From positions 32,001 to 96,000 of the forward strand of contig CAVXEP010000031.1 of assembly GCA_963760795.1 (NCBI GenBank): a stretch of 64,000 nucleotides of DNA. The letters are read 5' to 3'. The position numbers and the translations under genes are program-made. The stretch is from an uncultured delta proteobacterium. GTDB taxonomy: Bacteria > Desulfobacterota > Binatia > UBA9968. Shown here piece after piece: positions 29,469 through 35,621 of the stretch (within the stretch, counting starts at the first letter, position 1; every line of letters begins with the position of its first letter). The notes beneath the pieces are model-generated. The model saw only the letters and a program-made list of their open reading frames with translations. It had not been told where the DNA came from and did not search any database.

Positions 29469-29777
29469 CTAACCTAAATCGACCAGTACGTCATCGCCTT
29501 CGACTTGGACGTCATACTTTTCCGTGGGCAGGGCCGGTATCAATTCGTTTTCGCCGGTGGTGACGTTGTAGCGCCAGCCATGCCAGGGACAGATCACGGT
29601 GGTACCATCCAGCTCACCTTCGGCGAGCGGGCCGCCGCGGTGGCCGCAGACATCGTTGATCGCGTAGAACTTGCCGTCGACATTGAACACACCCACGGCT
29701 TTGCCGTCGATCTCTAAGCTTTTGCCGCAACCGCCTTTGACTTCATCGGTTTTGCAGACTTTTACGAAATTGGCCAT
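29469..29777 (-). CDS. Rieske [2Fe-2S] ferredoxin
   Basis: CGH...CPWHGW. Confidence 0.93.
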   Translation of the reverse strand: MANFVKVCKTDEVKGGCGKSLEIDGKAVGVFNVDGKFYAINDVCGHRGGPLAEGELDGTTVICPWHGWRYNVTTGENELIPALPTEKYDVQVEGDDVLVDLG

Positions 29778-29840: not shown

Positions 29841-30932
29841 TCAAGGGCCGGGGTATGCGGCGGGGACGATCGGTCTTGTGGTTAGGGTCGCGGCGAATTC
29901 ACTGCCGCCATGGCTTACGGTCAACTTGGTGCCCGGCGTCCAGCAGTCTTTGTTGACGTAAGCCCAAGGCAATTGGCCGGTGCAGTGCGAAGGAGACGAC
30001 GGAGCTGGTGATCTGGCCGACCTCTTTGTTGCCGGCGCTGATCTTGTCGCCAGGGCTTGCCGGCGTGTCACCATCGAGCAAGAGCCCGCAGAGTTTCTTG
30101 TTGACATGGCCGCGCGAGCGGATGCGCTCGACCACTTCCTGGCCCAAATAACAGCCCTTGGTGAAACTCACGGCGTCATCCAAGGCAACTTCAAGTAGCA
30201 GATTATCTTCGGAGAAATCAATACCGTACCGAGGAATACCGGCTTCGATGCGCAAGATATTCTGTGCCTGTTCGCCGACCCAGGCGGCGCCCAGTTCGGT
30301 TAACCGTTGAGCAAAGCCCGCGAGCTGAGAAGTTTGCACGATCAGATCGAAGCCGTCATGGCCCGTACGATCGGCGCGCACGACGCAGACCGGAGTGGCG
30401 TCGAATTGCACCATGCCATGGTGATTAGGTTGCAGCCGGCAGCTCGGCGTTGGCAAACAGCTTGGTCAAGCATCACTTGCGCCCGTGGCCCCTGCAGCGA
30501 CAGCATTTTCCATTGCTCATTGGGATCGTGGATCTCCACGTCGTCGGCGACTAGATAGCGATTGAGATGGGTGAGAATCTTTTCTTTCAGCGGCTCCCAA
30601 AAGTCCAGGTAGAAAGAGTTCAGCGAACACAACACGCGCAGGTCGGCGACCACCTTGCCTTGTTGGGTAAGAATCGTGGCCTGCTGGCCGTCGAACATTT
30701 TTAGCGGTCGCAGATCGTTGGATAGCATGCCTTGCAGATAAGGCAGCCGGTCCTCGCCGGTGAATTGCAGCATGGCGCGATTGGCTAGGTCGAACAGGCC
30801 GGCGGATTCACGAACCGATTTGTATTCGCTCGCCGGATCGCCGAAATGGTCGGGCAATCGCCAGCCATCCCGTTCGATGAAAGTCGCCCCCTGGCGTTCG
30901 TGCAAATCCGCTAGTGTCGATCGCTTTGCCAT
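29841..30932 (-). CDS. GcvT/YgfZ family folate-binding aminomethyltransferase-like protein, two frameshifts (~30450, ~29965)
   Basis: GcvT-like N-terminus, LRIEAG, KGCYLGQE motif, IALGYV tail spread over three ORFs. Confidence 0.85.
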
Positions 30933-31051
30933 AGCTGGGAAAATATACCGTCATGCGTTGCCATTGACAATGCCAATGGCCGCTTCTCGATCATTGATAG
31001 ATAGTTCACCGGTGTGATAGACAGATAATATCTTAAGATGGAGGTGTCTTC

Positions 31052-31520
31052 ATGGCAGGACTTGAAGGGCAAAAAGCGCCGGCGTTCACCTTGGCGGGGA
31101 GCGACGGCAAACAACATTCGCTAGCTGAGTACGCTGGCAAAAACGTCATTCTGTGGTTTTATCCGAAAGACGATACACCTGGCTGAACCAAAGAAGCGTG
31201 CGGGTTCCGCGACGCTATCGATACCGTTACGCAAAGCCAATACCGTGGTTGTGGGTGTCAGCCCGGATGGCATCGATTCGCATAATCAGTTCATTAGCAA
31301 GTTTAACCTGCCGTTTATGCTGCTCGCCGACCAGCAGAAAGATACCATGAAGGCCTATGGCGCCTGGGGACCGCGCAAAAATGCCGCGGGCGAAGTCTCG
31401 GAAGGGACGATTCGCTCGACCGCTTTGATCGGCCCCGATGGCACGGTAAAGAAGCATTGGATTCCTGTCACTGATCCCGGCGCGCATCCGGCTGAAGTTT
31501 TGGAATTCCTCGGTAAGTAA
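31052..31520 (+). CDS. bcp: selenocysteine-containing BCP/PrxQ peroxiredoxin (Sec45), plus one extra-base frameshift near 31224
   Basis: GGAGG RBS and ATG 31052: MAGLEGQKAPAFTLAGSDGKQHSLAEYAGKNVILWFYPKDDTPG-TGA(31184-86)-TKEACGFRD; colinear with the Cys paralogue at 35154; C-terminus is ORF 31245..31520. Confidence 0.85.
31195..31216 (+). promoter_or_regulatory. putative bacterial SECIS hairpin
   Basis: AGCGT-GCGG-[GTT]-CCGC-g-ACGCT, G-initiated apical loop starting 18 nt after the UGA. Confidence 0.75.
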
Positions 31521-31536
31521 GTAATCGAAAACCGTA

Positions 31537-31582
31537 GCTGAGGGAGCGCTGCCGATTTTTCATGATGGCGCGCTCCCTCAGC
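31537..31582. repeat. 13-bp perfect inverted repeat (stem-loop without U tract)
   Basis: gctgagggagcgc ... gcgctccctcagc. Confidence 0.6.
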
Positions 31583-31602
31583 GGCGAACCTCTCGGCATT
31601 CC

Positions 31603-32515
31603 ATGGCGAAAATCAAAGCCGACCTCGATCTCCACAAATTAGAAATTTTCTACTGGGTCGCTGAACATAAGAGTTTTTCTCAGGCTGCCGAGCTGCTCTC
31701 ACTGCGCCAGCCCACTATCAGCGCGCATGTCCAAGAGCTCGAAAAAGCGGTTGGCGGCAAACTGCTCTACCGCATGCCGGGCAAGATCAGTCTGACGCCA
31801 TTGGGCCTCATGCTCGCCGAACGGGCGAAGAATCTGCTCGCCTTCAAACGCGAAACCGTTGCCGCTGTGGAGCAGTTTCACGGCACCCTCAGCGGCGAGC
31901 TTTGGGTCGGCGGCAGCAGTGTTCCCGGCGAATATCTCCTGCCGCAAAAGCTCGGCGAGTTCACCAAAAAATTCCCCCAGGTAAAACCGATCCTGCGCAT
32001 CGGCGATTCCGCCGGCGTGATCGCCGATCTGTTGGACGGCAAAGTTGAGATCGGCTTTGTCGGTTTTAACGACGATGACGACCGGCTCATTTTCGAAAAG
32101 ATCTGGGACGATGAAATGATCGTGGCCGTGCCCAAAGGCCATCCATGGAGTACGCGGAAGGCGATTGAAGTCGCGCGATTTGCGCAGTGAAAAATTCATC
32201 TCCCGCGAACACGGCTCGGGCACGCTGGACTCAATCGGGAAATTGCTCGCCAGGCGTAAACAGCCTGCCCGTGAGCTATTGAACATCACCATGGAACTCG
32301 GCAGCACGGCGGCCGTGAAAGAAGCTTTGATGGCCGGTTACGGTTTTTCGATTCTATCACGCATATCGATTCGCCATGAGCTCGACCAAGGCAGCATCGT
32401 CGAGGTGCCGATCCGCGGCGTGAAACTCGAACGGGGCTTTTACCAAGTTTTTCATAGCCGCCGGCCGTTCCATCCCATCGCCCAAGCGTTTCGCGATTTT
32501 CTCAAACGCCGATAA
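31603..32515 (+). CDS. LysR family regulator, CysL-like, frameshift near 32175
   Basis: SFSQAAELLSLRQPTISAHVQELE HTH, SSVPGEYLLP, FISREHGSGT, ELGSTAAVKEA. Confidence 0.88.
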
Positions 32516-32605: not shown

Positions 32606-33964
32606 ATGGCACTGCCGTTAAAGAGCCGCGGTCCGAGCGCTGCCGAGCAGTTGCGTGACAGGTTGGTCGATGCCTGGGCGCGTTCAGACAAGCTTTTCAA
32701 CATCGTTGGCACGGGCCAAAGTTTAACCAAGCCGATCGTTTGGCGTCATCCGTTTATTTTTTACATCGGTCACTTGCCGGCGTTTTCCTGGAACCAGGTT
32801 TGCGGCGGTATTCTGCAATGGCCGTCTTTCAACGCTTATTATGACGATCTGTTCTGCCGCGGTATCGATCCCGACGTCGACACCGGCGAATGCCACTGGC
32901 ACCCGGAGGTTCCGGAAGAATGGCCAAGTCTTGAGCAAACCGTCAGATATCGTGACCGGGTCCGGCGCGCGCTTTTAGAGTCTACCGAAGCGATTGCCTA
33001 TTGTCGTTCCAGCGATCTGTTGGCCCAAGGCGGGCGCGTCTTTGAGCTGATCTTGGAGCATGAATACATGCATCAAGAGACTTTGCTCTACATGATGCAG
33101 CAGATGGCGCCTGGCGATAAAGTCCGGCCGCGAGAATCTTTCCGTTACTCATTCGGGCGCGCCGCGAGGGTGGAAAGCATTCGCATACCGCGTGGCAAAG
33201 CCCGGCTGGGAGCGTGCTTCGAGGATCTCACTTTCGGTTGGGACAATGAGTTCTCTGATATCACGGTTGATGTCGCAGGCTTCGCGATGGACTCTTTGCC
33301 GGTTACCAATGGCGAATATCTCGAGTTTGTTCTTTCCGGTGGGTACGCGGCGCGCCGCTACTGGCGCGCGGATGATTGGCACTGGAAGGAACTGGAGAAG
33401 AAACAGCATCCGACCGGTTGGTGTAAGCAGGATCACACCTGGTCATACCGTGCCATGTTCGACCACTTACCGTTGGAACAAGTGGCTAGCTGGCCTGTCT
33501 ACGTAAGTCTGGCGGAAGCGCGCGCCTATGCAGCTTGGCGCGGCAAACGCTTGCCGACGGAAGCCGAATATCATCGCGCCGCTTATTACGGTCCGGACGA
33601 ACGGGAGTCGACTTATCCCTGGGGTGACGCGCAGCCGACAGCGCGGCACGGCAACTTCAATTTTACCGCCTGGTCGCCACAGCCGGTCGGCTCGCACCCC
33701 GCGGGTGCGAGCCGTTGGGGAGTTCAAGAGCTGGTCGGTAATGGTTGGGAGCTGACCGATACACCGTTCGCGCCGTTGCCGGGGTTCACGCCTTATATGA
33801 CGACCTATCCCGACTATTCCAAGGATTTCTTTGACGGCAAACATTTTGTCGTCAAAGGCGCCTCCTGGGCCACCGATGCGGGACTGCTGCGGCCAAGTTT
33901 TCGCAATTGGTATCAAGCACATTATCCCTACGTGTTCGCCAAGTTTCGCTGTGTCGCGGATTGA
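32606..33964 (+). CDS. non-heme iron sulfoxide synthase of the EgtB/Egt1/OvoA/SenA superfamily (DinB + FGE-sulfatase domains)
   Basis: FYIGH and EHEYMHQE iron ligands, RGIDPDVD, RLPTEAE, GNGWE, KGASW, FRNWY. Confidence 0.85.
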   Translation: MALPLKSRGPSAAEQLRDRLVDAWARSDKLFNIVGTGQSLTKPIVWRHPFIFYIGHLPAFSWNQVCGGILQWPSFNAYYDDLFCRGIDPDVDTGECHWHPEVPEEWPSLEQTVRYRDRVRRALLESTEAIAYCRSSDLLAQGGRVFELILEHEYMHQETLLYMMQQMAPGDKVRPRESFRYSFGRAARVESIRIPRGKARLGACFEDLTFGWDNEFSDITVDVAGFAMDSLPVTNGEYLEFVLSGGYAARRYWRADDWHWKELEKKQHPTGWCKQDHTWSYRAMFDHLPLEQVASWPVYVSLAEARAYAAWRGKRLPTEAEYHRAAYYGPDERESTYPWGDAQPTARHGNFNFTAWSPQPVGSHPAGASRWGVQELVGNGWELTDTPFAPLPGFTPYMTTYPDYSKDFFDGKHFVVKGASWATDAGLLRPSFRNWYQAHYPYVFAKFRCVAD

Positions 33965-35153: not shown

Positions 35154-35621
35154 ATGGCTAGTTTAGAAGGTAAAAAGGCCCCGGCCTTTAGTCTGGAAGG
35201 CAACGATGGCAAGACGCATTCGCTAGAAGACTACAAAGGCAAAACCGTCGTGCTGTATTTTTATCCAAAGGACAACACGCCCGGTTGCACCAAGGAAGCC
35301 TGCGGGTTTCGCGATCTGAATGCGGCATTGAAAAAATCAAACGCCGTGGTCATGGGCGTCAGTAAGGATAGCCTCGACTCGCACAACAAGTTTGTCGAGA
35401 AGTTTAAATTGCCTTTTGTGCTGTTGTCCGATCCGAAGCTCGAGATGATGAAGAAGTACAGCGCTTACGGCAAAAAAATGATGTACGGCAAGGAAGTGCA
35501 GGGAACGATTCGTTCCACCGTCGTCATCGGTCCCAAGGGTGACGTGATCAAGCATTGGACTACGGTCAAGAAAGCTGAGGAACACCCGCAAGCAGTGCTC
35601 GACTATCTAAAAAATAGTTAG
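35154..35621 (+). CDS. bcp: BCP/PrxQ peroxiredoxin, cysteine form
   Basis: YFYPKDNTPGCTKEAC.FRD, AGGAGG RBS. Confidence 0.93.
   Translation: MASLEGKKAPAFSLEGNDGKTHSLEDYKGKTVVLYFYPKDNTPGCTKEACGFRDLNAALKKSNAVVMGVSKDSLDSHNKFVEKFKLPFVLLSDPKLEMMKKYSAYGKKMMYGKEVQGTIRSTVVIGPKGDVIKHWTTVKKAEEHPQAVLDYLKNS

Follow-up and report, generated by a model that had tools for sequence, protein, structure and literature searches.

Gene Organization of the Locus

The window, a stretch of 64,000 nucleotides, carries a peroxiredoxin gene at 31052..31520 of the plus strand. The gene comprises 155 codons and a stop codon when an in-frame TGA is read as selenocysteine (Sec) and one extra base is discounted. It is referred to below as paralogue 1, and it is followed on the same strand by genes for a LysR-type regulator, a sulfoxide-synthase homologue and a second peroxiredoxin.

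A ribosome-binding site, GGAGG, was read directly from the sequence at 31040..31044 of the plus strand, 7 nt 5' of the ATG at 31052, and the same ggagg-N7-ATG spacing recurred in the orthologues of the gene. Both of these start signals had been proposed in a first-pass annotation of this DNA and both were present. Frame 1 from the ATG encoded 44 residues up to FYPKDDTPG and was followed by TGA at codon 45 (31184..31186, plus strand) and then by TKEACGFRDAIDTV; the reading proposed earlier, in which FYPKDDTPG and TKEACGFRD are separated by TGA alone, was found unchanged. Past TKEACGFRDAIDTV frame 1 was lost, and the remainder of the product, RKANTVVVGVSPDG...EFLGK, was located in the +1 frame, which ended with the stop codon at 31518-31520.

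The TGA lies at the peroxidatic position of a PxxxTxxU motif, P38-K-D-D-T42-P-G-U45, which is followed by T-K-E-A-C50. The TGC codon of Cys50 (31199..31201, plus strand), presumably the resolving cysteine of a U-x4-C arrangement, was situated in the 5' arm of the hairpin described below and was invariant in 24 of 24 Sec-form sequences of the clade. The second peroxiredoxin gene, paralogue 2, was located at 35154..35621 of the plus strand. It encodes 155 amino acids, contains the same EACGFRD peptide and has TGC at codon 45, so the earlier equation of the TGA with Cys45 of this paralogue held codon for codon.

A mechanical listing of open reading frames returned a 44-aa piece and a GTG-started 91-aa piece as the only products of the locus, which bore out the remark that the ORF track misses the N-terminal half of the gene. 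Gene callers would give the 44-aa and 91-aa fragments, or nothing, in place of a complete antioxidant enzyme.

Conservation of the TGA Codon

A DNA search of 40 relatives yielded an orthologue of paralogue 1 in 19 of the 24 other genomes of the genus. All 19 had TGA at codon 45, with the frame open on both sides (18 of 18 when the unpublished genome G004, locus L030, is left out). A stop codon was reached at 154-156 codons in 18 of the 19, and the frame of the remaining one, G018, shifted near codon 140. Among codons 56-153 of 23 Sec-form orthologues, variable sites numbered 44, 31 and 95 at codon positions 1, 2 and 3, respectively, and it was concluded from this distribution that the region 3' of the TGA is translated.

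A wider search of 123 genomes of the order gave 29 full-length rows with at least 75% identity and exactly one TGA, and one further row of this identity, G466, had none. Conservation of the TGA in relatives, which had been named earlier as a check on the Sec reading, was therefore seen both in the genus and in these 29 rows. Eight further rows with 64-69% identity had no TGA, and three of those genomes carried TGA in paralogue 2. The table of this search includes the unpublished genomes G476 and G479, and no claim made here rests on them. In a sister genus, 26 of 28 genomes possessed a homologue of 43-49% identity containing a single TGA, and the position of this codon was checked in three of them. 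Among 400 genomes sampled from the phylum, 21 further ones had a homologue with one TGA. This codon stood after PxxxTxx in 18 of the 21; a regular expression for the PxxxTxx-TGA pattern gave no match in the other three (L105, L108 and L113). TGC or TGT aligned to codon 45 in the paralogue of the window and in 17 other Cys forms.

Among the differences listed for near-identical environmental contigs, the TGA was unchanged.

A SECIS-Type Hairpin Directly 3' of the TGA

A hairpin with a folding energy of -13.0 kcal/mol was predicted at 31193..31219 of the plus strand, that is, at nt 10-36 when the U of the UGA is numbered 1. Its upper stem extends over 31195-31216 and includes a bulged G (31211); the apical loop, GUU, occupies 31204-31206 and lies 17 nt 3' of the UGA. 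The bulged G separates the upper 4 bp from the next 5 bp of the stem, and a bulged A separates these from 2 outer pairs. A 9-bp hairpin with a GUU loop had been described earlier; the hairpin and its loop stood, and the 9 bp were found to be interrupted by the bulged G and extended by two outer pairs.

The published model of the bacterial SECIS element (PMC13188914, Fig. 2 legend) gives a loop of 3-9 nt, an upper stem of 4-16 bp, a G in the first two loop positions, a spacing of 16-37 nt from the UGA and a minimum free energy of -7.5 kcal/mol or lower. The hairpin agreed with the model in every constraint, having a GUU loop of 3 nt, an upper stem of 4 + 5 bp, a spacing of 17 nt and a minimum free energy of -13.0 kcal/mol. 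As a fold of a single sequence it was not exceptional (z = -1.0, with 30 of 200 shuffled sequences folding equally well), and the weight of the SECIS evidence therefore lies in the comparison of related sequences. An Rfam scan of 30900-31700 at E values up to 1 gave no match. The Rfam library is not known to include a model for bacterial SECIS elements, so the absence of a match says little.

The comparison covered 24 Sec-form members of the clade. Of 153 third codon positions, just 10 were invariant, and four of these ten fell one after another at the hairpin apex, in codons C50, G51, F52 and R53. The longest invariant run, 14 nt (nt 148-161 of the coding sequence), spanned the same apex, and no run elsewhere exceeded 5 nt. 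Standard pairs filled 262 of 264 pair cells. A compensatory change was recorded in G509, where pair 15-30 was A-U and not G-C as elsewhere; covariation in the main clade amounts to this one pair in one species, the hairpin being otherwise nearly invariant.

Five Cys-form members of the clade kept the peptide and lost the stem. Only 41 of 55 cells paired in these sequences, pair 14-31 holding in none of the five and pair 15-30 in one. One of these five, G466, was nested within the Sec clade. The median folding energy of nt +10..+39 was -12.8 kcal/mol for Sec forms (n=38) versus -5.45 kcal/mol for Cys forms (n=18), a difference (Mann-Whitney p = 9e-9) that is descriptive only, since the sequences are related. 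The same interval of paralogue 2 in the window folded differently, with -8.7 kcal/mol versus -13.3 kcal/mol for the Sec gene. The earlier observation that the Cys paralogue encodes the same EACGFRD peptide with codons that disturb the stem was correct in this sense, the stem being weakened.

At this position the Sec genes of the sister genus, like the Sec copies of paralogue 2, had hairpins of other designs. The loop was GUU on a perfect 9-bp stem, GGUUU on a stem of 7 bp and 8 nt long on a stem of 6-8 bp, and a further stem carried a GUA loop. Taken together, the fit to the published model, the conservation alongside Sec and the loss in Cys forms upheld the SECIS-like character that had been claimed for the element.

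Sec-Decoding Machinery and Other Readings of the TGA

The presence of selA, selB, selC and selD had also been named as a check, and all four genes were detected in the genome. The tRNA-Sec match scored 76.7 bits (gathering score 47), and ARAGORN reported a tRNA-SeC with the anticodon TCA. The selA (531 bits), selB and selD genes were located together on one contig outside the window (G000:C11:1948-7292). The wing domain of SelB scored 76 bits within a 647-aa frame. The selD match of 378.6 bits contained one in-frame TGA near the N-terminus, in the context G-U-A-A-K, which we take to be the known Sec/Cys site of SelD. It follows that the genome has at least one further selenoprotein.

Could the TGA be a plain nonsense codon, with the hairpin a by-product of the coding of EACGFRD and the locus consisting of two small ORFs or a dead gene? 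The unremarkable single-sequence fold (z = -1.0) and the conservation of the EACGFRD peptide in Cys forms would both agree with such a reading. However, every orthologue retained the TGA, whereas wobble sites elsewhere varied almost throughout, the sequence 3' of it was under coding-type constraint, and the Cys forms used other codons for the same peptide and lost the stem. The genome also possesses the Sec machinery, and TGA homologues occur in 26 of 28 sister-genus genomes (position checked in 3) and in 18 checked genomes from other parts of the phylum. As far as sequences can tell, a plain stop codon was accordingly considered practically negligible as an explanation.

Nor does it seem at all probable that the UGA is read through without the Sec system, either by a near-cognate tRNA for Trp or Cys or under a reassigned code. 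The UGA stands exactly at the position of the redox Cys of the homologues, a SECIS-type hairpin accompanies TGA and vanishes with TGC or TGT, and tRNA-Sec, selA, selB and selD are all present. TGA ended 1425 of the 3691 stop-to-stop frames of at least 300 codons in the genome and was the commonest terminator of long frames; a reassigned genetic code was rejected for that reason.

The reading of the UGA as Sec was retained. It is proposed that SelB carrying Sec-tRNA(Sec) would recognize the hairpin at 31193-31219 and deliver Sec to the UGA at 31184-31186, after which the ribosome would continue to a protein of 155 residues.

Origin of the Frameshift

The second interruption of the gene is one extra base (+1 frameshift) at 31231..31232 of the plus strand, where the window reads ACG-C-AAA-GCC and its closest relatives read ACG-AAA-GCC. 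The base was private to this assembly and was absent in 19 of 19 orthologues. A programmed +1 frameshift at 31231/31232 was rejected, as no orthologue carries the extra base.

No sequencing run with the window's own reads was found, the best run sharing 0.36 of the sampled words. Contigs of four runs, which were 88-99% like the window and represent relatives and not the source, were aligned to the locus. All three environmental runs that bridged the site (X1, X19 and X4) omitted one base at 31231 or 31232, and run X2 had no contig across 31222-31232.

Six private 1-nt insertions were counted in the 3.47 kb of the window that aligned with seven relatives, and five of them fell inside coding sequence. 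Their sites were 29960, 30434 and 30460 in a GcvT-like gene, 31047 in the intergenic region, 31231/31232 in the peroxiredoxin gene and 32176 in the LysR gene. G019, an assembly of few contigs, had a private indel set of its own, and the private indels of six other assemblies were either intergenic or multiples of three. The genome of the window consists of 35 contigs and is 88.94% complete by marker genes.

Since the extra base and four other gene-breaking 1-nt insertions are all private to the window, the frameshift is in all likelihood an assembly error from an indel-prone assembly. The indel had been placed near 31224 and regarded as a probable assembly error; its position was corrected to 31231/31232, and its origin in the assembly gained support short of proof. 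Such an error would add a second false break to the Sec peroxiredoxin gene. As the assembly appears to be indel-prone, other split genes in this genome are to be distrusted as well.

A different account would accept that the family is a selenoprotein family and take the copy of this strain as a fresh pseudogene, in which a real extra base truncates the product after about 77 residues. The frameshift is indeed present in the assembled sequence, the contigs aligned to it came from relatives and not from the source sample, and the function could be supplied by the Cys paralogue at 35154. On the other hand, the same 3.47 kb contains four more private insertions, three that break the GcvT-like gene and one that breaks the LysR gene, G019 shows its own private set while six other assemblies have none inside genes, and completeness is only 88.94% despite 35 contigs. 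The rest of the peroxiredoxin gene is also undamaged, with 93% DNA identity to G019 and an intact SECIS. A pseudogene was thus judged improbable, and the extra base would be a product of the assembly and not a feature of the gene.

Several related breaks were observed. The GcvT/YgfZ-like gene at 29844-30950 of the minus strand was split by three private insertions, and its relatives were intact, with 368 aa. Paralogue 1 of G018 (L032), in an assembly of few contigs, had a frame break near codon 140, and paralogue 2 of G019 (L035) had one after about residue 84; both were probably assembly errors too.

Family Assignment and Predicted Reaction

Family scoring was performed with the intact orthologue P0002, which was 99% identical to the product of the window where both could be read. 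The AhpC/TSA domain (PF00578) matched with 125.9 bits against a cut-off of 26. In the NCBIfam comparison, in which U was scored as C, the two best families were PrxQ (NF053650, 155.4 bits, cut-off 260) and Bcp (NF006960, 116 bits, cut-off 140), both scores lying below the equivalog cut-offs. The PrxU model (NF040737) gave 41.2 bits, below its cut-off of 270. The closest solved structures were those of bacterioferritin comigratory proteins (BCPs), led by 3drn (E = 9e-27) and including 5iiz. In atypical 2-Cys BCPs the resolving Cys follows the peroxidatic residue at a distance of five, and the spacing of U45 and C50 fits this arrangement.

From these matches, the gene at 31052-31520 very probably encodes a BCP/PrxQ-type thiol peroxidase with Sec as the peroxidatic residue. 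The hidden Sec BCP peroxiredoxin that the first-pass annotation had proposed was supported by the conserved TGA, the hairpin, the sel machinery and the combination of PF00578 with PxxxTxxU. By analogy with the family, the Sec45 selenolate would reduce the peroxide and be converted to a selenenic acid, which would condense with Cys50 to an intramolecular selenenylsulfide, and thioredoxin would then reduce this bond again.

Selenocysteine-containing peroxiredoxins of this kind are well documented. Among the families that the Sargasso Sea selenoproteome paper gives as already known is "Peroxiredoxin (Prx), COG1225, TXXU", with 43 genes (PMC1088965). In 2006 Zhang et al. counted 12 Sec-Prx genes and five Cys-to-Sec events; Syntrophobacter fumaroxidans is one of the Deltaproteobacteria for which they list a Sec peroxiredoxin (PMC1794560). 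A 2026 review places Prx (PF00578, TxxU) among the experimentally supported selenoproteins and cites PrxU of Eubacterium acidaminophilum, for which Sec has been shown experimentally (PMC13188914).

The gene described here shares with the TxxU family the domain, the Sec at the peroxidatic position of PxxxTxxU, the SECIS directly 3' of the UGA and the widespread Cys homologues. It also shares the enrichment in Deltaproteobacteria/Thermodesulfobacteriota and the repeated changes between Cys and Sec, of which five events are listed for Prx and at least three to four were found here. No essential difference from the family was noted, except that the present clade has tandem paralogues beside a LysR_Se regulator; a description of this arrangement was not found in the available portions of PMC1088965, PMC1794560 and PMC13188914. 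PrxU likewise has Sec at the peroxidatic site of a thioredoxin-dependent peroxiredoxin but belongs to a different subfamily, its profile having 233 positions versus the 155 aa of the present protein. The Cys-form BCP/PrxQ proteins of the E. coli Bcp type resemble the product in length (~155 aa) and in having peroxidatic and resolving residues five apart, and differ from it in having Cys where Sec is encoded here.

The main text of the BSepDB paper (PMC13326102) contained no mention of peroxiredoxin or Prx, of Thermodesulfobacteriota or of Syntrophobacter. A literature search for a selenoprotein BCP (bacterioferritin comigratory protein) gave no paper on a Sec-BCP among the titles listed. The gene is a member of a selenoprotein family that has been known since 2005 and is common in the order and the phylum, and it is ordinary for its lineage. 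It adds an uncultured soil and sediment genus of a Syntrophobacter-related order to a family that is well documented there.

Exchange of Selenocysteine and Cysteine between the Paralogues

What goes beyond a routine selenoprotein is that the neighboring paralogues swap Sec and Cys across genera, while the hairpin comes and goes with the TGA. A tree of 54 sequences required at least four Sec/Cys changes, three of them forced by well-supported branches; two frameshifted copies, the gene of the window and paralogue 2 of G019, were left out of it.

TGA was present at codon 45 of the paralogue 2 orthologues in 5 of 16 members of the genus and also in other genera (the orthologous loci were L036, L043, L046, L047, L049, L195, L197, L199, L205, L207 and L210). 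Three different hairpin solutions were found after the TGA among these orthologues. One genus had the states reversed, with Cys in paralogue 1 and Sec in paralogue 2. All combinations of paralogue 1 and paralogue 2 were observed, namely Sec+Sec, Sec+Cys, Cys+Sec and Cys+Cys.

The Neighboring Regulator and the Gene Cluster

A regulator of the LysR_Se type, which is associated with selenium metabolism (NF040786), is encoded at 31603..32515 of the plus strand and is split by the private base at 32176. Because the gene is split, its N-terminal piece scored 167 bits on NF040786. The intact orthologues, with frames of 302-315 aa, scored 267.8 (G013), 260.2 (G473), 260.3 (G466) and 267.5 (G520) bits, above the cut-off of 250. 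The LysR_Se gene adjoined paralogue 1 in every arrangement examined (four genera or species), whatever the Sec/Cys state.

The next gene, at 32606..33964 of the plus strand, encodes an OvoA/EgtB/SenA-like sulfoxide-synthase homologue with the Pfam domains DinB_2 and FGE-sulfatase. Its NCBIfam scores were 259 bits for OvoA, 221 bits for SenA and 221 bits for EgtB, all under the cut-offs. The same gene was also situated between the two peroxiredoxin genes in three other genera (L214, L215 and L216), again with a selenium-associated regulator nearby. SenA is the selenoneine synthase, and a role of the product in selenium or thiol-histidine chemistry is possible.

In Methanococcus, regulators of the LysR_Se/HrsM type are reported to repress selenoprotein isoenzymes of the Cys form in the presence of selenium (PMC5322559), which makes a selenium-dependent choice between the two peroxiredoxins a reasonable hypothesis. 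The cluster described here resembles that system in placing an NF040786-positive regulator beside a pair of genes for Sec and Cys isoenzymes. It differs in that the targets of HrsM in Methanococcus are hydrogenase operons, whereas the neighbors here are peroxiredoxins.

We tentatively proposed that the conserved cluster of LysR_Se, the two peroxiredoxin genes and the OvoA/EgtB/SenA-like gene between them might form a selenium-responsive isoenzyme switch, in which the regulator would sense the selenium status in the way presumed for HrsM of Methanococcus, although such a switch is rather unlikely. If it did exist, LysR_Se would set the balance of the Sec peroxiredoxin versus its Cys twin. The Sec/Cys swaps across genera would then represent different settings of one backup system, and the cluster would be the antioxidant equivalent, in bacteria, of the archaeal switch between Sec and Cys hydrogenases. 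The swapping of Sec and Cys together with the adjoining LysR_Se gene offers a testable lead on selenium-dependent isoenzyme choice in bacteria.

A perfect 13-bp inverted repeat was located at 31537..31582 of the plus strand, between the peroxiredoxin stop codon and the LysR start, with arms at 31537-31549 and 31570-31582 and a 20-nt spacer. The five closest relatives shared it, G013 with a compensatory exchange of G and C, and it was not followed by a T-run. The repeat may serve as a terminator or attenuator hairpin or as an operator.

On the minus strand, a Rieske [2Fe-2S] protein of 102 aa was encoded at 29469-29777, downstream of the GcvT-like gene, and was conserved in relatives.
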